Below, one piece after another: positions 3,102 to 16,824 of a stretch of 21,730 bases of DNA (its first letter is position 1; each line of letters starts with the position of its first letter). Origin of the DNA: Pseudomonadota bacterium (lineage in GTDB: Bacteria > Myxococcota_A > Polyangia > JAAYKL01); NCBI GenBank assembly GCA_023229365.1, contig JALNZK010000002.1, positions 318,343 to 340,072 on the forward strand. The letters are read 5' to 3'. The translations under genes and the position numbers were made by a program. Under the pieces are notes generated by a model. It made no database searches and was not told where the DNA came from. It saw only the letters and a program-made list of their open reading frames with translations.

Positions 3102-3635
3102 ATGGAACCAACAAAACGAGAATATCAGGTTATTTTGGGCACTATTATGGGCGGCTCATCAATCATCCGGCCTAAAAAGGGAAAGCATTGTTATTTGTCC
3201 ATGCGAGACAAAAGAGCCAATTGGCTAGAGTTCAAAGCAGATCAATTAGCTCGATACGCCTCGCCAGAGCCTTTTACGATTGAAAAAACAAATCGTTGGC
3301 ACTCTTTGGCATATCCTATTTTCGATGAATTTAGAGAAAAGTTTTATAATCACAAAAAACGTTGTGTCGATATCGAAAGCCTTACTTTCTGGGACGTGGG
3401 ATTGTCTATTTGGTTTGGAGATGTGGGCAAGTTCGAAAATGGACAAGTTATATTAAACACTCACATCTGGGGCGAAAAAGGATCAGAAACCCTGGCAAAA
3501 TATTTCGAATATTGTCAATGGCCTGCTGAAATATTTAAAGACCGCACCTATTACCGTTTACGATTGAACAGAGAGGCTTCTGTGCATTTTATGAATACGG
3601 TTAGCCCTCATTTGCCATTCCCATTGACTCAATAA
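3102..3635 (+). CDS. putative LAGLIDADG-family homing endonuclease (177 aa)
   Basis: Two LAGLIDADG-like dodecapeptides about 95 aa apart ('ILGTIMGGSSI' and 'LSIWFGDVGKF'). Size and the free-standing context fit a homing endonuclease. Assignment is from motifs only. Confidence 0.4.
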   Translation: MEPTKREYQVILGTIMGGSSIIRPKKGKHCYLSMRDKRANWLEFKADQLARYASPEPFTIEKTNRWHSLAYPIFDEFREKFYNHKKRCVDIESLTFWDVGLSIWFGDVGKFENGQVILNTHIWGEKGSETLAKYFEYCQWPAEIFKDRTYYRLRLNREASVHFMNTVSPHLPFPLTQ

Positions 3636-6484: not shown

Positions 6485-7219
6485 TTAGCTATCGGTTTTG
6501 TGCAATGCATCGTATTCCGCCGATGTTGCTCGCAGAACGGCCCTGTTGTGAACTTCATCGGCATCACAAGAAGCAGAGGTTCTCGATTCGTAATCGGCAT
6601 AGGCTTTGCTTCCAGCCGCCGCAAAAGCCATAGCTTCCATCGTTCTTGCCGATTTGCCGCCTGTGAACTCATTCAACAGCATTAGTTTGGTATCGGCAGC
6701 TTGAGCCACATTAGCCCAGAATTTGCTTCCGCTATTCAGGCATTGCAACGGGAAAACACGGACACCCATTTCTTTGAGGGCAGCCAATTCTTGTCTCCAA
6801 TTCAGCTTGCCTTCATTCTGCGGATAATTAACATCGTGGGGATCAGCATCACCAATCATGACGAAAGCCGCCGCCACACCGGGGGTCCAACCCAAATCCC
6901 TGGCTTCGTGCAAAACCAATTCATAACATTCATCGCAATCGCCACCCGATGTGTCAGGTGCATTGCGAATAAAGTCGAAGATTTTTGCACGATCATTCGT
7001 GAGCTTTAGCACACGGATGCAGTTTTGTCCATCGCAATAATCCCCGTGAGAAATAAATGCCATTTTCAAGCCGGGAATATTTGCAAATAAACCCTCACAG
7101 GTTTCTTCCAGATGTTTGCGAACATCAGCGATACACGGTCGCATGGAACCTGTGGTGTCAAAACTTATGCCAATTTCCGTAGCGTCATCAATTCTTTCGC
7201 CAAGTGTTTGTTCCGCCAT
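6485..7219 (-). CDS. vWA (von Willebrand factor A) domain protein with a MIDAS motif (244 aa; start taken at the internal Met)
   Basis: 'ISFDTTGSM' is a D-x-T-x-S MIDAS site. Downstream Thr/Asp positions ('PDTSGGD', 'MIGDADPHD') are also present. RBS AAGAGGAAAAA precedes the ATG at 7219. The longer ORF to 7315 would overlap the E1 gene. Confidence 0.75.
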   Translation of the reverse strand: MAEQTLGERIDDATEIGISFDTTGSMRPCIADVRKHLEETCEGLFANIPGLKMAFISHGDYCDGQNCIRVLKLTNDRAKIFDFIRNAPDTSGGDCDECYELVLHEARDLGWTPGVAAAFVMIGDADPHDVNYPQNEGKLNWRQELAALKEMGVRVFPLQCLNSGSKFWANVAQAADTKLMLLNEFTGGKSARTMEAMAFAAAGSKAYADYESRTSASCDADEVHNRAVLRATSAEYDALHKTDS

Positions 7220-7232
7220 TTTTTCCTCTTTT

Positions 7233-7877
7233 CTAGTGCATTGCACTAATGTGTAAGTCACGCAGGGTAATGGACCATGATTGATGCCGTGGCGATGATG
7301 CCAAGAAGAAATCAAGGATTTCCTCTGAGGCTGCCGCTACTGTCAACATGATGATGTTACGAGCCAAGGGATAGTCGCAAACGTCGCCACCGCTGTCCTT
7401 TGGCACCTTGTAGCGATCATCCCATACAACCTCGCCATAATCTTCAAATAATCCAGTGTGCAGACATGGAATCTTCTTTGCCCGGCAATGGGTTTGAACA
7501 ATTTGCCGTGCAGCATTATTATCAAAACAATCCAACACCAATGCTGAGCCACGCAGCATTTTATCCACGGTAGCGGCGGTCAATTCCTTGTCCACGGTGT
7601 CAATTTCAACACCAATGTTGCCAAACACCTTCTGTTTGGCGGCGGCAACTTTCAAAGCTCCAACATCCCGCTCATTCCAAAACTGGGTGTTTAGATTATG
7701 AGTATCGACACGATCTTTGTCAATACCACGGAGATTGGCAAATCCTTGTCGAGAAAGATTGTCAAGCAAATTGCTACCCAGGGCTCCTACACCACAAATG
7801 GTGATTAGACCTTGCAATTTCTTGGCATAATCCTTGCCTCGGTAAATTTCTTCATGATGGAATTTATTCGTTGCCAT
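7233..7877 (-). CDS. minimal E1-like adenylyltransferase (ThiF/MoeB/HesA superfamily) (214 aa)
   Basis: Rossmann GxGxxG 'ICGVGALGSNL' and 'GIDKDRVDTHNLNTQF', corresponding to the D-x-D-x-V-x(2)-SNLNRQ motif. Also 'ALKVAAAKQKV' and 'LDCFDNNAARQIV'. Cys residues in the C-terminal part. GGAGGA RBS. Confidence 0.8.
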   Translation of the reverse strand: MATNKFHHEEIYRGKDYAKKLQGLITICGVGALGSNLLDNLSRQGFANLRGIDKDRVDTHNLNTQFWNERDVGALKVAAAKQKVFGNIGVEIDTVDKELTAATVDKMLRGSALVLDCFDNNAARQIVQTHCRAKKIPCLHTGLFEDYGEVVWDDRYKVPKDSGGDVCDYPLARNIIMLTVAAASEEILDFFLASSPRHQSWSITLRDLHISAMH

Positions 7878-14815: not shown

Positions 14816-15046
14816 TTAGCCGAAAACTGCCTCCGGTCGGAGTGTAAGGGTGTTAGTTTCACCATTACGATCAACAGCAAAAGCCCGTAGCTTCCCTTGA
14901 GGGATGCCTAGCCAATCGGCGGCAGCATTGCGGATATCGGCATCCGAGCTATTGTCGCCAATATTCAGTTCCGCCAAGGGAACGTCGTAAGACCTTCCTT
15001 CGACTCGAACGTGCAGCATGTTTTCAAGTTGGTTTTCGTTGTCCAT
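14816..15046 (-). CDS. ubiquitin-sized beta-grasp-like small protein (76 aa; ends ...TLTLRPEAVFG)
   Basis: AAGGAG RBS 9 nt upstream. The alternating strand-helix pattern 'HVRVEGRSYDVPL...DIRNAAADWLGIPQGKLRAFAV...TLTLRPE' resembles ubiquitin/ThiS ('GIPPDQQRLIF...LHLVLRLRGG'). It ends in a single Gly. Confidence 0.45.
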   Translation of the reverse strand: MDNENQLENMLHVRVEGRSYDVPLAELNIGDNSSDADIRNAAADWLGIPQGKLRAFAVDRNGETNTLTLRPEAVFG

Positions 15047-15089
15047 CGTAATTTCTCCTTATATCGTTCGTTCGTCTTTCACTTTCCCT

Positions 15090-15117
15090 ATTATACTTCA
15101 GAAATTTGAGTTGTAAA
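15090..15117 (-). promoter_or_regulatory. sigma70-like promoter P2 (minus strand), driving the Ubl-like and Ro60-like genes
   Basis: Minus-strand TTTACAACTCAAATTTCTGAAGTATAAT: -35 TTTACA, 16-nt spacer, perfect -10. Confidence 0.55.
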
Positions 15118-15153
15118 CAAGAAAAAATCCGTCCAAGTTACAAAAACTGTTTT

Positions 15154-15228
15154 TGGTAAACAATGCAGGAATTGAACCAGCATTCTTCAGTTTTCAAGAC
15201 TGACGCTCAACCATTGAGCTAATTGTTT
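15154..15228 (-). tRNA. complete cloverleaf tRNA, anticodon UGA (Ser), but with a short (5-nt) variable arm and an encoded CCA
   Basis: Minus strand AAACAAT-TA-GCTC-AATGGTT-GAGC-G-TCAGT-CTTGAAA-ACTGA-AGAAT-GCTGG-TTCAATT-CCTGC-ATTGTTT-A-CCA, 75 nt. All four stems pair (one U·U in the T stem). U33 is present. The A/U-rich acceptor stem is unusual. Confidence 0.55.
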
Positions 15229-15257
15229 GTAAGTTTTAGTGGTATGGGACGGAAAGT

Positions 15258-15313
15258 GGAGGGTGTTGGATTCGAACCAACATTTTTTCGTTTTCAGTGA
15301 AAAAAGTTACCTT
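15258..15313 (-). ncRNA. partial tRNA-like module (anticodon-like hairpin, canonical T-arm and a 7-nt acceptor-3'-like segment; no D-arm or 5' acceptor strand found)
   Basis: Minus strand ...TTTTTTC-ACTGAAAAC-GAAAAAA-T-GTTGG-TTCGAAT-CCAAC-ACCCTCC-A, immediately followed by the next A-motif. Confidence 0.3.
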
Positions 15314-15395
15314 TTGTTTGTATGTCTCTCAGGTGTGGGACAATTGCTTGTCCAAGTTTGGGAAACTGAACGTTTTTAACCCTCCAAAGTATCAG

Positions 15396-15521
15396 CGGGG
15401 AAGATGGGATTCGAACCCATAATTTTTCCTTAACAGGGAAACTTTTACCAATTGTTTGTATGTCTCTCAGGTGTGGGATGGTCGCCCATCCAAGTTTGGG
15501 AAACTGAACTTCTAACTTCCC
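15396..15521 (-). tRNA. tRNA-like gene (anticodon GUU, Asn-like) interrupted by a roughly 57-nt conserved hairpin element in the D-arm region
   Basis: Acceptor 5' strand GGGGAAG (15515-15521) pairs perfectly with CTTCCCC (15397-15403). Canonical anticodon arm TTTCC-CTGTTAA-GGAAA. T-arm ATGGG-TTCGAAT-CCCAT. Between the acceptor and the anticodon arm lies AGTTTCCCAAACTTGGATGG-GCGA-CCATCCCACACCTGAGAGACATACAAACAA, the B'-GNRA-A' element. Confidence 0.4.
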
Positions 15522-15612
15522 CATGTGCCCGGTTTATAATTCTCTGCCTGCAACCGGAAACCCGGCAGAAAAGCCTCCAGTTATTGGTTTATCCCAAGAG
15601 GCGAGTAATCAG

Positions 15613-15738
15613 ACCCGGTGGTAGGAGTCGCACCTACAATCTTTTCCTTAGGATGGAAACGCTGTTTGTACGTCTCTCAGGTTTGGGATAATTTCTTATC
15701 CGAGTTTGGGAAACTGTTTGCTGTTTAGCTTCACCGGG
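15613..15738 (-). tRNA. tRNA-like gene (anticodon CCU, Arg-like) interrupted by the same conserved hairpin element
   Basis: Acceptor CCCGGTG (15732-15738) pairs with CACCGGG (15614-15620). Anticodon arm TTTCC-ATCCTAA-GGAAA. T-arm GTAGG-TGCGACT-CCTAC (T-loop has G at position 55). Inserted AGTTTCCCAAACTCGGATAA-GAAA-TTATCCCAAACCTGAGAGACGTACAAACAGC. Confidence 0.4.
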
Positions 15739-15788
15739 ATATTCATAAGGCAAACATTTGATCGTCCAAGTCGAAGAAACTGTTTTTT

Positions 15789-15860
15789 GCAACAATGTTG
15801 GATTCGCACCAACTACCGAAACTTTATGGAAGTTTTGCTCTACTGATGAGCTAATTGTTT
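15789..15860 (-). tRNA. near-canonical cloverleaf tRNA-like gene, anticodon CAU, enclosed by a 24-bp perfect leader-trailer stem
   Basis: Minus strand AAACAAT-TA-GCTC-ATCAGTA-GAGC-A-AAACT-TCCATAA-AGTTT-CGGTA-GTTGG-TGCGAAT-CCAAC-ATTGTTG-C, 72 nt. Deviations: A1·G72, C33, G55 and a D-loop lacking GG. Flanked by the perfect inverted repeats 15744-15767 and 15879-15902. Confidence 0.45.
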
Positions 15861-15913
15861 GTAAGTTCCGTCAGTATGGGACGATCAAATGTTTGCCTTA
15901 TGTTGATTTTACC

Positions 15914-16090
15914 GACGCAAGCAAGTGTTGGCCCGTCCAAGTCGAAAAAGCTGTTTCACATAGTGACAGTTTAATAGACTGTTGCCTTTACCATTAGGCT
16001 AAAACACATTTTGGCGTGTTTGTTGGATTCGAACCAACAGATTGTTTGTAAGCTCTGTCTGTGTGGGACGAGCAAACACTTGCCTGCGTC
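15914..16090 (-). ncRNA. circularly permuted tRNA-like / Y-RNA-like unit Y2
   Basis: Minus strand order: 25-nt 5' stem strand (16090-16066), then A' motif, then T-arm GTTGG-TTCGAAT-CCAAC, then a closed acceptor-like hairpin AAACAC-GCCAAAAT-GTGTTT, then TA, then D-arm GCCT-AATGGTAA-AGGC, then anticodon-like hairpin ACAGT-CTATTAA-ACTGT, then B' motif, then the 3' stem strand (15938-15914). The terminal stem has 3 mismatches, 2 of which are G·U-compatible only in the minus-strand RNA. Confidence 0.45.
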
Positions 16091-16262
16091 AACATCATCA
16101 AGCTTCCGTCTGTCCAAGTTGAAGAAGCTGTTCAACTTTTGACAGTTCCAATTACTGGTGCCTGACCGTTAGGCTACATTCCTTGCGGAATGATGGGAGT
16201 CGAACCCACTTATTTGTTTGTAAGCTCCGTCTGTATGGGACAGACGGAAGCTTGATGATGTT
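16091..16262 (-). ncRNA. circularly permuted tRNA-like / Y-RNA-like unit Y1
   Basis: Enclosed by the perfect 25-bp inverted repeat 16238-16262 / 16091-16115. Internal order: A' motif, then T-arm GTGGG-TTCGACT-CCCAT, then closed acceptor-like hairpin CATTCC-GCAA-GGAATG (GNRA loop), then TA, then D-arm GCCT-AACGGTC-AGGC (G18G19 present), then hairpin CAGT-AATTGGA-ACTG, then B' motif. Confidence 0.45.
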
Positions 16263-16339
16263 TACAACTCAAATTGTCAAAGAACACAAAATTGGCTATC
16301 CAAGTTCATAGAGGGGAGAACATTCAAATCTCCCCCTTC

Positions 16340-16475
16340 AAGCGGGGGAGAAAGTCGTTTGTAACCTCTATAGGTTTGGGATAGCAAGGGGAGCCGTTGG
16401 AGTCGAACCAACAAAACCACAAGCCCCGTCTTTCAACACTATACGCTGAATACCGTATTGCGGTTCATTCAGTAT
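16340..16475 (-). ncRNA. first transcribed module of the array: 5' stem-loop, T-arm/acceptor minihelix and G/C-rich alternative hairpins
   Basis: Minus strand from about 16473: CTGAATGAACCG-CAATA-CGGTATTCAG hairpin. Then GGGGCTT...GTTGG-TTCGACT-CCAAC-GGCTCCC (acceptor-like pairing with G·U). Then A' motif. Then TCTCCCCC-GCTTGAA-GGGGGAGA-TTTGAATGT-TCTCCCC, two mutually exclusive hairpins sharing GGGGGAGA. Confidence 0.3.
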
Positions 16476-16480
16476 GATCT

Positions 16481-16508
16481 ATTATACGCCTTTTTTATTC
16501 CCTGTCAA
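16481..16508 (-). promoter_or_regulatory. consensus sigma70 promoter P4 (minus strand), immediately upstream of the tRNA-like array
   Basis: Minus strand TTGACA-GGGAATAAAAAAGGCG-TATAAT: perfect -35 and -10 with a 16-nt spacer. The transcript would begin with the CTGAAT...ATTCAG hairpin. Confidence 0.65.
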
Positions 16509-16542
16509 CACCAGTTTCTCAATTTTCAAAAAAATTTTTCGG

Positions 16543-16782
16543 TTATTCTTCCCGCATGGCTTTTAATGCCGCCTGGGAAATTTCAATTCCCCGAAAAAAT
16601 TCCTGCAAATGTTCGTCATTCTCGCCCAGGTTGAAGTCAGCCTCATGAAGAATTTCCCCATGAACAAAGGCGTTGTGTACGCCAGTCATAATGTACCGTG
16701 GATCGGCTTGTGCTTCAACTACAAGCATTCTAATGAAATGCTCGACTACTTCGTGGGTTTGTATTTGATCTGCTGTCATCAT
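16543..16782 (-). CDS. hypothetical acidic protein (79 aa)
   Basis: GGAGG RBS. Sits directly downstream of promoter P3 and upstream of P4 and the array. The antisense +ORF 16609-16902 is rejected. Confidence 0.5.
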   Translation of the reverse strand: MMTADQIQTHEVVEHFIRMLVVEAQADPRYIMTGVHNAFVHGEILHEADFNLGENDEHLQEFFRGIEISQAALKAMREE

Positions 16783-16796
16783 TTTCCTCCACCGCC

Positions 16797-16824
16797 ATTA
16801 TACTTCAGCTTTCTGGTTTGTAAA
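16797..16824 (-). promoter_or_regulatory. sigma70-like promoter P3 (minus strand)
   Basis: Minus strand TTTACAAACCAGAAAGCTGAAGTATAAT. Third copy of the TTTACAA-N16-TATAAT family; the conserved CTG(A/G)AG lies just before the -10. Confidence 0.5.

Follow-up and report, generated by a model that had tools for sequence, protein, structure and literature searches.

An array of tRNA-like RNAs built on a shared rod adjoins the gene for a Ro60-like protein, its predicted partner, in a huge-phage genome

Which RNAs are encoded by a 1.4-kb array of tRNA-like sequences, some of them in rearranged order, that adjoins a Ro60-like gene on the minus strand of a huge-phage genome, and what ties them to that gene? 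We addressed this question in a stretch of 21.7 kb (contig JALNZK010000002.1 of assembly GCA_023229365.1), called the window below, with positions counted from its first letter. An earlier interpretation of its letters (the sequence-only reading) had proposed that the array gives rise, on the minus strand, to polycistronic structured RNAs built on a bipartite scaffold, with a Ro60-like protein as partner. This core is supported by our in-silico tests, from which binding, processing and expression are inferred, and every concrete claim that we checked holds. The explanation that we prefer, and consider moderately probable, is that the array consists of polycistronic genes for Y-RNA-like RNAs in which one shared element, a rod, docks the phage Ro60-like ring.

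The array starts at a promoter (TTGACA-N16-TATAAT, 16508-16481, minus strand) which by direct reading matches the sigma70-type consensus at 12 of 12 positions, as had been claimed, and ends at a stem and a run of six U near 15122. Downstream of the promoter, the same strand carries a bipartite motif in nine copies and eight units with a T-arm. The T-arms are at 16413-16396, 16210-16193, 16039-16022, 15814-15797, 15638-15621, 15421-15404, 15282-15265 and 15182-15165; where "eight or more" had been announced there are exactly eight, all on the minus strand of the array, and the T-loop motif occurs nowhere else on either strand of the window. Nine or ten copies of the bipartite motif had been expected, and nine were found; the ninth (14718-14796) lies outside the array as it had been delimited and had been missed. 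Three long leader-trailer stems were checked base by base and stood: 16262-16238/16115-16091 has 25 Watson-Crick pairs out of 25, 15902-15879/15767-15744 has 24 out of 24, and 16090-16066/15938-15914 has 22 Watson-Crick pairs, two G.U pairs and one U.C mismatch. The two G.U pairs exist only in minus-strand RNA, for read from the plus strand they turn into C.A and A.C.

A covarying rod common to all copies of the motif

The two parts of the bipartite motif belong together: A is one strand and B the other of a structure of about 50 nt, which we call the rod. It consists of a helix P1, an internal loop of about 4x4 nucleotides, a second helix P2 and an invariant heptamer, UACAAAC. Written as RNA, the A strand reads (P1)GUCCC-A-Y-A-C, followed by about 8 nt of P2 strand and N-UACAAAC, and the B strand reads (P2)-R-ACUU-GGAC(P1). 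P1 pairs GUC[C/U]C with [G/A]GAC and is extended outward, P2 varies in sequence and covaries, and the invariant positions are ACU on the 5' side of the loop, C and A on its 3' side, and C-UACAAAC after P2. In most cases AAAC, the end of the heptamer, finds a partner in a GUUU close by (P3); in rod-enclosed tRNAs this pairing provides acceptor pairs 1-4.

Eight of the nine rods of the window lie within 15122-16385 and one at 14718-14796. Six are of a stem type, in which A, a cargo and B follow each other (UACAAAC starting at 16363, 16222, 16050, 15863, 15231 and 14773), and three are of a hairpin type, in which B comes first and is joined to A by a P1 capped with a GNRA loop (15670, 15460 and 15322). 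The covarying stems with GCAA, GCGA and GAAA loops described in the sequence-only reading are recognizable in these three short copies, whose stems are GGACAA/UUGUCC, GGAUGG/CCAUCC and GGAUAA/UUAUCC. Minimum free energy (MFE) folds of all units show P1, the internal loop and P2.

Rods could be collected well beyond the window, 77 in 18 loci from huge phages, contigs of planctomycete metagenome-assembled genomes and the cultured Zavarzinella formosa. Covariation over repeat copies and homologous loci, which had been suggested as a check, came out clearly. In an alignment of 32 hairpin-type rods from nine loci, RNAalifold recovered P1 and most of P2, and under the structure that we specified 88.2% of the cells were paired, against 33-47% when the 3' partners were slid. 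Compensatory double changes filled 111 cells against a shuffle mean of 41.6, and none of 500 shuffles reached 111. In P1 every cell is paired (100%) and covariation is seen at each of the six pairs, one case being a coupled change from GGAC/GUCC to AGAC/GUCU; several U.G and G.U pairs occur among the aligned rods. For the stem-type rods (46 of the 77), the P1 extension scored 6.2 of 8 between cognate A and B partners and 3.8 of 8 between non-cognate ones, and P2 scored 7.2 against 4.5 of 8. A covariance model of the hairpin rods gives 58-63 bits (E ~1e-12) on the three hairpin copies of the window, and its strong matches all fall on the strand of the Ro60-like gene; for these two reasons a chance origin of the pattern is excluded. 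Rfam scans of the window, of the array at E up to 10, of the related locus L001 and of the large cargo of locus L010 returned no family for the rod, only tRNA, weak YrlA matches and noise.

These data bear directly on the idea that the units are decayed tRNA pseudogenes, attP-type fragments or DNA-level repeats devoid of RNA function, to which we give hardly any credence. Several units do fall below the tRNA gathering threshold and homing endonuclease genes lie nearby. Against this stand the compensatory changes, the G.U pairs, the strand specificity and the conservation across phages whose Ro60-like proteins share 37-57% identity, together with perfect 24-25-bp stems specific to each unit, a consensus promoter upstream and the lack of any open reading frame (ORF) call in the region; the covariation effectively refutes the pseudogene or attP reading.

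A conserved core that occurs in two permuted connectivities, with invariant unpaired ACU, C, A and UACAAAC beside covarying helices and with rods at unit boundaries, is also what one would expect of a small self-cleaving ribozyme in circularly permuted topologies (compare hammerhead and twister) that cuts the precursor into units. We regard such a ribozyme as very improbable, as no Rfam ribozyme family matched at E up to 10 and the rod is made of two coaxial helices and one internal loop, with neither a multi-helix junction nor a pseudoknot. The link with the Ro60-like gene would also go unexplained, and cleavage of the rods that sit in D-loops would destroy the body that carries them.

The Ro60-like protein and its association with rods

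The gene next to the array (13123-14694, minus strand) encodes a very divergent protein of 523 aa that has no match to Pfam TROVE. Its best PDB sequence match by phmmer was the TROVE protein of Thermus phage phiLo, a weak one (E 0.013). An AlphaFold2 model built from 31 homologues has a mean pLDDT (predicted local distance difference test) of 81, and the top 13 matches of this model in a Foldseek search of the PDB were all Ro60 structures (human and Xenopus Ro60, Deinococcus Rsr and phiLo Ro60), full length, with E-values from 5e-10 to 4e-7 and a TM (template modelling) score of about 0.6. The layout is that of a TROVE-type HEAT ring plus a vWA domain; the C-terminal domain carries the MIDAS motif DKSGS (MIDAS, an adhesion site dependent on metal ions), and TDEGEN is also seen in the translation. 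Homologues make up more than 1,282 clusters, of which many come from contigs of 100-595 kb, and some of the homologues give a sub-threshold match to PF25045 (vWA_Ro60). At the level of the modelled fold, the Ro60-like nature that had been proposed for this protein is confirmed, and we predict it to be the partner of the rods.

We then asked how closely rods and Ro60-like genes travel together. The window is about 69% identical in DNA to an uncultured 595-kb huge phage (LR756511), in which a longer array of the same elements is found. Aligning homologues of the Ro60-like protein, we gathered 15 loci, on viral contigs with lengths up to 572 kb, and in most of them motifs ending in UACAAAC cluster on the sense strand just upstream of the Ro60-like gene. 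In the window, as in L001-L008, L010 and L016, rods lie 0-4 kb upstream of that gene; the array of the window is 0.02-1.8 kb upstream of the 523-aa gene, and a comparable layout occurs in more than 12 loci. For scans at larger scale, the A strand was searched with the pattern GTCYCCNAYN7RCWTACAAAC, and a match was considered a true rod if a cognate B partner accompanied it. Among viral contigs, true rods were confined to those of this phage clade. Across prokaryotes (one genome per species, 596 Gb) the pattern was found at 59 loci, about the number expected by chance; a cognate B partner was present in five of the 59, and exactly those five encode a Ro60-like protein, a 76-aa protein that is also encoded beside the array (see below), or both. 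Rods strictly co-occur with the Ro60-like gene, in a cultured bacterium as well as in phages. Loci whose Ro60-like protein is only 37-40% identical keep the same rod architecture with other P1 and loop sequences, the distant variants including CCGCGC/GCGCGG with GAAAC and the heptamers UACAUAC and UACACAC.

The cultured bacterium is Zavarzinella formosa DSM 19928 (L089; NZ_JH636440.1, 6577-7660, minus strand), where a kinase-like gene, a promoter, three rods and a Ro60-like gene follow each other in an ordinary chromosomal context; none of the other four genes of the cassette described below is present at this locus. One of its units holds a T-arm, a closed acceptor and a D-arm directly in the rod and has no anticodon arm. 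A locus of this kind in a cultured strain makes experiments feasible. The first cargo of this locus is close in sequence to the last unit of the window array (U7, below), and a perfect long hairpin of about 30 bp is found between its rods 1 and 2.

tRNA-like bodies and their relation to Y RNAs

Within the array, rod and cargo are combined in three ways, all on the minus strand. Two units enclose a whole cloverleaf. U3 (15744-15902) is a rod with the perfect 24-bp stem, identified as an inverted repeat and in the fold, around a complete cloverleaf at 15789-15860 with anticodon CAU, C33 and an A1.G72 mismatch. U7 (15122-15255) is a rod (P1 7/8, P2 7/8 in A/B partner scoring; fold and reading) around a complete 75-nt cloverleaf at 15154-15228. 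This cloverleaf has A1-U72, encodes CCA and lacks a long variable arm; its anticodon, UGA, is one for Ser. The run of six U comes after the closing stem, which looks like a terminator. Both cloverleaves had been named in the sequence-only reading, both are called as complete minus-strand tRNAs by ARAGORN and by Rfam, and they are the only two units to pass the Rfam tRNA gathering score of 29, with 69.9 bits (15157-15228) and 46.3 bits (15789-15860). A permissive Rfam scan added four sub-threshold minus-strand matches, and the remaining six T-arm units reach 16.9-27 bits or go unmatched.

Two other units are permuted, with the order T-arm, closed acceptor, D-arm and anticodon arm, and with the rod at the position of the variable loop. 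U1 (16088-16265) combines the rod with a leader-trailer stem of 25-28 bp, recognized from the inverted repeat, the 25/25 stem, a match to YrlA at 16160-16209 and folds; its body consists of the T-arm, a 6-bp acceptor stem closed by GCAA, UA, a GG-containing D-arm and an anticodon-like hairpin whose loop is AAUUGGA. U2 (15903-16101; inverted repeat, the 22 Watson-Crick, two G.U and one mismatched positions described above, folds) has its acceptor strands connected by G-CCA-AAAU and the anticodon loop CUAUUAA. The 5' arm of U2 overlaps the 3' arm of U1 by 14 nt (16088-16101). The permuted order proposed for both units agrees with their MFE folds and with the YrlA match; that they keep an anticodon arm, which YrlA lacks, had been overlooked when they were likened to it.

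The third way, insertion of a hairpin-type rod into the D-loop region, had been missed altogether by the sequence-only reading, which had correctly told tRNAs from permuted units. U4 (15613-15738) carries its rod at 15662-15718 (GAAA loop; covariance model 58.1 bits, E 5e-12) in the D region of a tRNA-like body that has a T-arm, the anticodon loop AUCCUAA and an acceptor of CCCGGUG/CACCGGG. U5 (15396-15522) is a tRNA-Asn(GUU)-like body with the rod at 15452-15508 (GCGA loop; 60.0 bits) and a partial Rfam tRNA match of 26.6 bits; U6 (15257-15385) is a tRNA-Phe(GAA)-like body with the rod at 15314-15370 (GCAA loop; 63.4 bits) and an Rfam tRNA score of 25.3 bits. Once the rod is deleted, ARAGORN calls tRNA-Asn(gtt) in U5 and tRNA-Phe(gaa) in U6. 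tRNAs tolerate extra length at the acceptor end, in the variable loop and in the variable parts of the D-loop, and all three modes of attachment keep the L-shape.

In the relatives, stem-type rods also hold other cargo: tiny ones of 21-32 nt, hairpins of 44-52 nt and a conserved RNA of 268-284 nt. The last is represented by a homologous pair of structured RNAs inside stem-type rods (L001 10500-10790, minus; L010 5429-5725, plus), which had no Rfam match at E up to 10 and whose 5' part (ACGGUCAUAAGGUAGCGAG) we presume to resemble 23S rRNA around the I-CeuI site. Some rod-associated bodies have unusual anticodons, UCA (of the opal-suppressor type, tRNA-SeC according to ARAGORN) or AUU with an unmodified-looking A34; they are found at L005 7703-7774, L004 7535-7605, the L003 unit at 7052 and 15903-16101 of the window, and may bear on stop-codon recoding in huge phages.

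Bodies of this kind raise the possibility that the rod is an intron-like or processing element, cut on both sides and followed by ligation of its flanks, and that functional tRNAs mature from split and permuted genes. D-loop-interrupted genes would then give continuous tRNAs, enclosed tRNAs would be released, and permuted genes would yield circles opened at the acceptor loop by RNase P and 3' trimming, as in Cyanidioschyzon. We consider this unlikely, even if much in the bodies is compatible with it. The orders A-cargo-B and B-hairpin-A share one junction logic. When the rod was deleted in silico, ARAGORN called a tRNA in 22 of 27 D-loop-interrupted units across loci, and the anticodon loop of most D-loop-inserted bodies is a canonical one of 7 nt, with U33 and A37. 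Two permuted units, U2 and the one at L006 6941, have a CCA-containing acceptor loop and the order 3'-acceptor strand, discriminator, CCA, spacer and 5'-acceptor strand, as in permuted tRNA genes, and about half of the rod-enclosed tRNAs encode CCA.

The deletion test turned out to be non-discriminating, as no unique splice junction was found: ARAGORN accepts many deletion boundaries as equally good, no single one gives back a canonical D-loop, and in U4 no tRNA is called once the rod is deleted. A bulge-helix-bulge motif (3-nt bulges flanking a 4-bp helix) was tried and rejected, the consensus being a P1 of at least 6 bp, a symmetric internal loop and a P2 of 9 bp, that is, a symmetric loop between two long helices. 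Neither a splicing endonuclease nor an RtcB-type ligase is encoded in the 21.7-kb window (of a 228-kb genome) or in the conserved cassette. The acceptor is closed by a tetraloop (GCAA, UUCG and GCAA) in three of the five permuted units, which therefore look like RNAs that stay closed, by design. Moreover, rods with tiny cargo and the rod in the mRNA leader of the Ro60-like gene would yield no splice product, conventional tRNAs with the same anticodons lie nearby, and the Zavarzinella unit is YrlA-like and has no anticodon arm.

The permuted, split or intron-bearing tRNA genes known from Cyanidioschyzon merolae and Archaea (PMC3978253, PMC3218864) resemble the array in several respects: the pairing of leader and trailer, insertions at non-canonical positions including the D arm, and a 3' half that precedes the 5' half, with GCAA as the spacer in U1 and the CCA-containing G-CCA-AAAU in U2. 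They differ from it in their bulge-helix-bulge motifs and in the domain of their host, which is bacterial, or a phage of bacteria, for the array; tetraloop-closed acceptors and empty rods are moreover unfit for tRNA maturation. A version in which the rod is an excisable element recognized by protein, with the Ro60-like ring, the 335-aa protein and the Ubl/E1/JAB partners of the cassette (Ubl, ubiquitin-like), or host enzymes, cutting and rejoining the RNA, seems to us less likely again. If it were true, these would be the first split, D-loop-interrupted and permuted tRNA genes outside Archaea and Eukarya, with a maturation unrelated to bulge-helix-bulge splicing.

Rod-free conventional tRNA arrays with overlapping anticodons lie directly upstream in several relatives. 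The anticodons of Thr (UGU) and Gly (UCC) in L003 and of Lys (UUU) in the phage of L007 are each present both on a rod-bearing body and on a conventional tRNA, and two permuted units of relatives carry the anticodon loop of tRNA-Lys(UUU). In addition, many rod-enclosed bodies are non-canonical, with A1-U72, C33 or a Leu or Ser anticodon without a long variable arm. Since conventional arrays duplicate the anticodons and many bodies are non-canonical, we argue that the rod-bearing bodies are more than the tRNA supply of the phage.

Y RNAs offer a closer comparison. That phages can encode Ro60 and YrlA-like RNAs was known before: YrlA is a permuted tRNA with a closed acceptor stem, encoded next to Ro60, in phages too (PMC4201824; bioRxiv 10.1101/312249), and 22 phages with Ro60 and YrlA-like RNAs have been listed (PMC4201824). 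U1 and U2 have the same order of T-arm, closed acceptor-like stem and D-arm within a stem formed by the 5' and 3' parts. They share their strand with the gene of a Ro60 homologue that is no more than about 4 kb away, the distance used as a criterion in PMC4201824, and several copies per locus are possible in this family. The best match of the window to the YrlA model (RF02553) has 27.7 bits (E 0.0024, model positions 31-81) at 16160-16209 and covers the T, acceptor and D region; relatives match the full model, with 42 bits in Zavarzinella (E 2e-8 for the stretch) and 40-40.2 bits in L087. In the Zavarzinella unit the terminal helix of YrlA aligns with P2 of the rod, and the internal loop and P1 lie beyond the model. 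In M. smegmatis, YrlA is a substrate of RNase P, which opens it, and acquires CCA; the acceptor loop of U2, with its CCA, is a parallel.

The differences from YrlA are as clear as the likenesses. The permuted units of the window keep an anticodon arm, and their rod stands at the variable-loop position instead of replacing the anticodon stem; the internal loop, P1 and UACAAAC of the rod are outside or unlike the YrlA model; rods also enclose whole tRNAs, tiny or large cargo, and sit in D-loops; arrays reach 9-15 rods; and the partner protein is missed by Pfam TROVE. By sequence comparison we take the units to be YrlA-like, distant relatives of the family and not demonstrable members of it.

Y RNAs are modular, with a stem formed by the two ends that holds the Ro60 site and an opposite end that binds effectors. 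The same division is found here: as in metazoan Y RNAs, a helix of distant strands would carry the protein site, with a variable module opposite to it, whereas the symmetric internal loop of the rod, its additional invariant heptamer and the tRNA-like cargo are its own. A phage example is also at hand in phiLo, whose Ro60 binds Y-like RNAs (Yrl1 and Yrl2) encoded just upstream of its gene and forms complexes with host PNPase (PMC12135203; PDB 9KOP, 9L5Y); its Ro60 is the best PDB sequence match of the window protein and one of its top fold matches. The phiLo RNAs are two simple stem-bulge-stem RNAs with a CGAA motif, whereas in the window nine rods follow another consensus, carry tRNA-like cargo and come with a Ubl/E1/JAB cassette in addition.

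We propose that the rod serves as the docking site for the co-encoded Ro60-like ring, in the manner of the terminal bulged stem of Y RNAs. It would be a shared handle, and the cargo, nearly always tRNA-like in the window, a variable module. A primary transcript from the promoter at 16508-16481 would be divided into units, with the long perfect stems as probable sites of RNase III cleavage, and acceptor stems with a CCA, for example that of U2 (G-CCA-AAAU), may be opened by RNase P. The tRNA-like cargo might recruit tRNA-binding factors to the Ro ring or act as a decoy for them, which is speculative but plausible; candidate targets are modifying enzymes, nucleases (PNPase, for one) and the anticodon nucleases of the host, these last because of the tRNA-Lys(UUU) anticodon loop in two permuted units of relatives. 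The ninth rod (14718-14796; P1 8/8; motif search and fold) lies in the 5' untranslated region of the Ro60-like gene, where it holds a small hairpin as cargo; after it come a stretch rich in U, a Shine-Dalgarno sequence and the start codon ATG at 14694. This rod may exert feedback control as a candidate autoregulatory or attenuator site.

Several findings weigh against docking by the Ro60-like ring. The sequence-only reading had spoken of a YrlA-like family, and the permuted architecture and the full-length match in Zavarzinella (42 bits) bear this out, but all units stay below the YrlA gathering score, 69 bits, and the array lacks the motif GNCGAAN0-1G, which lies near the 5' end of YrlA and is presumed to be its Rsr site; a regular-expression search of 14600-16600 on the minus strand gave two matches, both at 15004-15076, one within the 76-aa ORF, the other a little upstream of it. 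Rfam Y_RNA had no match at E up to 10. The rod strands GUCC(C)A/ACUUGGAC resemble, by eye, GGUC(C)GA/ACUUGAC of the vertebrate Ro site, a lead and not a test; of these strands GGUCCGA is quoted in PMC4201824. The 3' strand, ACUUGAC, is that of hY1. Rods are found also 15-20 kb from the Ro60-like gene, as a second cluster in L022. The 76-aa and 335-aa proteins are equally conserved and could bind the rods. Finally, canonical anticodon loops and the two CCA-containing acceptor loops would fit real tRNAs in need of processing.

By Rfam 15 and a full-text literature search, the rod itself appears to be new, and so do its three topologies, including insertion into tRNA D-loops and enclosure of whole tRNAs, the arrays of 9-15 copies and a Ro60 family invisible to Pfam; the literature search found reports on phage Ro60 and YrlA and nothing on the rod or such arrays. 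The locus looks like a new and enlarged form of the alliance between Ro60 and Y RNAs that has been described in animals and bacteria. Conservation of Ro60 and Y RNAs extends from bacteria to humans, and the role of the variable module of Y RNAs is largely open; with one docking rod on many cargos, up to 15 rods per locus and more than 1,000 protein clusters, the question of module recruitment becomes comparative and testable. Ro60/Y ribonucleoproteins are probably commoner in huge phages than thought, because Pfam misses the protein and Rfam misses the rod. Cargos that repeat the anticodon loops of ordinary phage tRNAs, Lys UUU among them, suggest a role in the tRNA conflict between phage and host anticodon nucleases.

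The neighbouring cassette and minor features of the array

The Ro60-like gene belongs to a cassette (6485-15046, minus strand) with the same order in the window and in L001-L014, L016 and L050: the gene of the 76-aa protein (14816-15046), the Ro60-like gene, and genes for a 335-aa protein (p335; 11278-12285), a Prok-JAB peptidase (8098-8661), a ThiF/E1-like enzyme (7233-7877) and a 276-aa vWA-like protein. p335, Prok-JAB and ThiF/E1-like follow the Ro60-like gene in nearly all phage loci, distant ones included, and in most of them, the distant L009 and L014 among these, the 76-aa gene comes before it. By tblastn the 76-aa gene has rods as neighbours in 17 distinct loci, repeated copies of one contig being counted a single time. 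Its product is a predicted beta-grasp protein according to an AlphaFold2 model, and its alignment shows an invariant C-terminus (...PEAVFG) with a terminal Gly; matches to ubiquitin-like folds were non-significant (E ~0.1). The 335-aa protein has 678 homologues, no match in Pfam, PHROGs, PADLOC, phmmer or PDB profile searches, and no PP-loop motif.

So constant a company raises the possibility that the rod is the site of another partner, namely the 76-aa protein, the 335-aa protein or the Ubl/E1/JAB cassette, with the cargo, or else other RNAs, left to the Ro60-like ring. Ubl/E1 pairs take part in the thiolation of tRNA in Thermus and eukaryotes, and one version would be an Ubl-thiocarboxylate-dependent thiolation of the tRNA-like cargo, comparable to TtuB/TtuC and Urm1/Uba4. 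The predicted beta-grasp fold and the invariant terminal Gly of the 76-aa protein agree with it. We consider another partner distinctly unlikely, since the Zavarzinella locus consists of rods and a Ro60-like gene with none of the other four genes, p335 lacks a PP-loop motif and any Pfam or PDB relative, and the ubiquitin-like fold matches are non-significant. Docking of the Ro60-like ring is left as the reading that we prefer, and the Ubl/E1/JAB link remains an unexpected one for Ro60. The fixed link in phages with a beta-grasp protein, a 335-aa protein, a JAB peptidase and an E1-like enzyme appears to be new in the sources named above, and as far as we found in the literature searched, no Ro60-linked ubiquitin-like or sulfur-carrier system has been described earlier.

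The remaining parts of the array are a first T-arm unit, one further rod and a spacer. The first unit (16388-16427, minus strand) is a minihelix resembling the 3' part of a tRNA (GGGGC...T-arm 16413-16396...GCUCCCC; T-arm family, MFE fold and reading), with a 5' hairpin ahead of it at about 16470-16443, and is the most vaguely defined of all. Rod 1 (16295-16385, minus strand), of the stem type, has P1 GCUAUCC/GGAUAGC (7/8 in A/B partner scoring) and P2 CUAUAGAGG/CCUCUAUG (8/8), followed by UACAAAC, and its cargo of 46 nt contains an 8-bp G+C-rich hairpin with a 7-nt loop in the MFE fold. The spacer between U4 and U5 (15521-15612, minus strand; about 90 nt) has two hairpins predicted by MFE folding and is free of rods, T-arms and matches to the rod model or Rfam. 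A protein-coding reading of the array was rejected: overlapping ORFs (e.g. 15294-15524) were left uncalled by the gene caller of the source assembly, for which the region is gene-free.

The array may be able to switch between pairing in cis and pairing with neighbours, as the 3' arm of U1 and the 5' arm of U2 share 14 nt. The rod covariance model also joins B of one unit with A of the next, with 34.7-42.2 bits (15855-15955, 16042-16132 and 16214-16318, minus strand). A perfect 17-nt inverted repeat (16259-16275/15103-15119) brackets U1-U7 with its arms 1,139 nt apart. We tried it as an RNase III stem around the whole array and rejected it, since none of five related loci has a counterpart and the 3' arm lies past the terminator-like U run, overlapping the -35 element of the promoter of the 76-aa gene (15117-15090).

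That promoter is of the form TTTACA-N16-TATAAT, on the minus strand, and the same form precedes a 79-aa ORF (16543-16782; promoter 16797-16824, minus strand). By eye, the same type is seen at about 13030-13065 on the minus strand, right after the terminator of the Ro60-like gene. Its recurrence suggests a shared expression class, probably dependent on host sigma70.

Within the cassette, the window has inserts encoding DUF5662, NADAR and a GIY-YIG homing endonuclease. The homing endonucleases of the window are LAGLIDADG_2 and GIY-YIG with NUMOD3 (3102-3635, plus strand; 9174-9893, minus strand). Genes for NUDIX, CYTH, NADAR and CAP-domain proteins are also found in the window.

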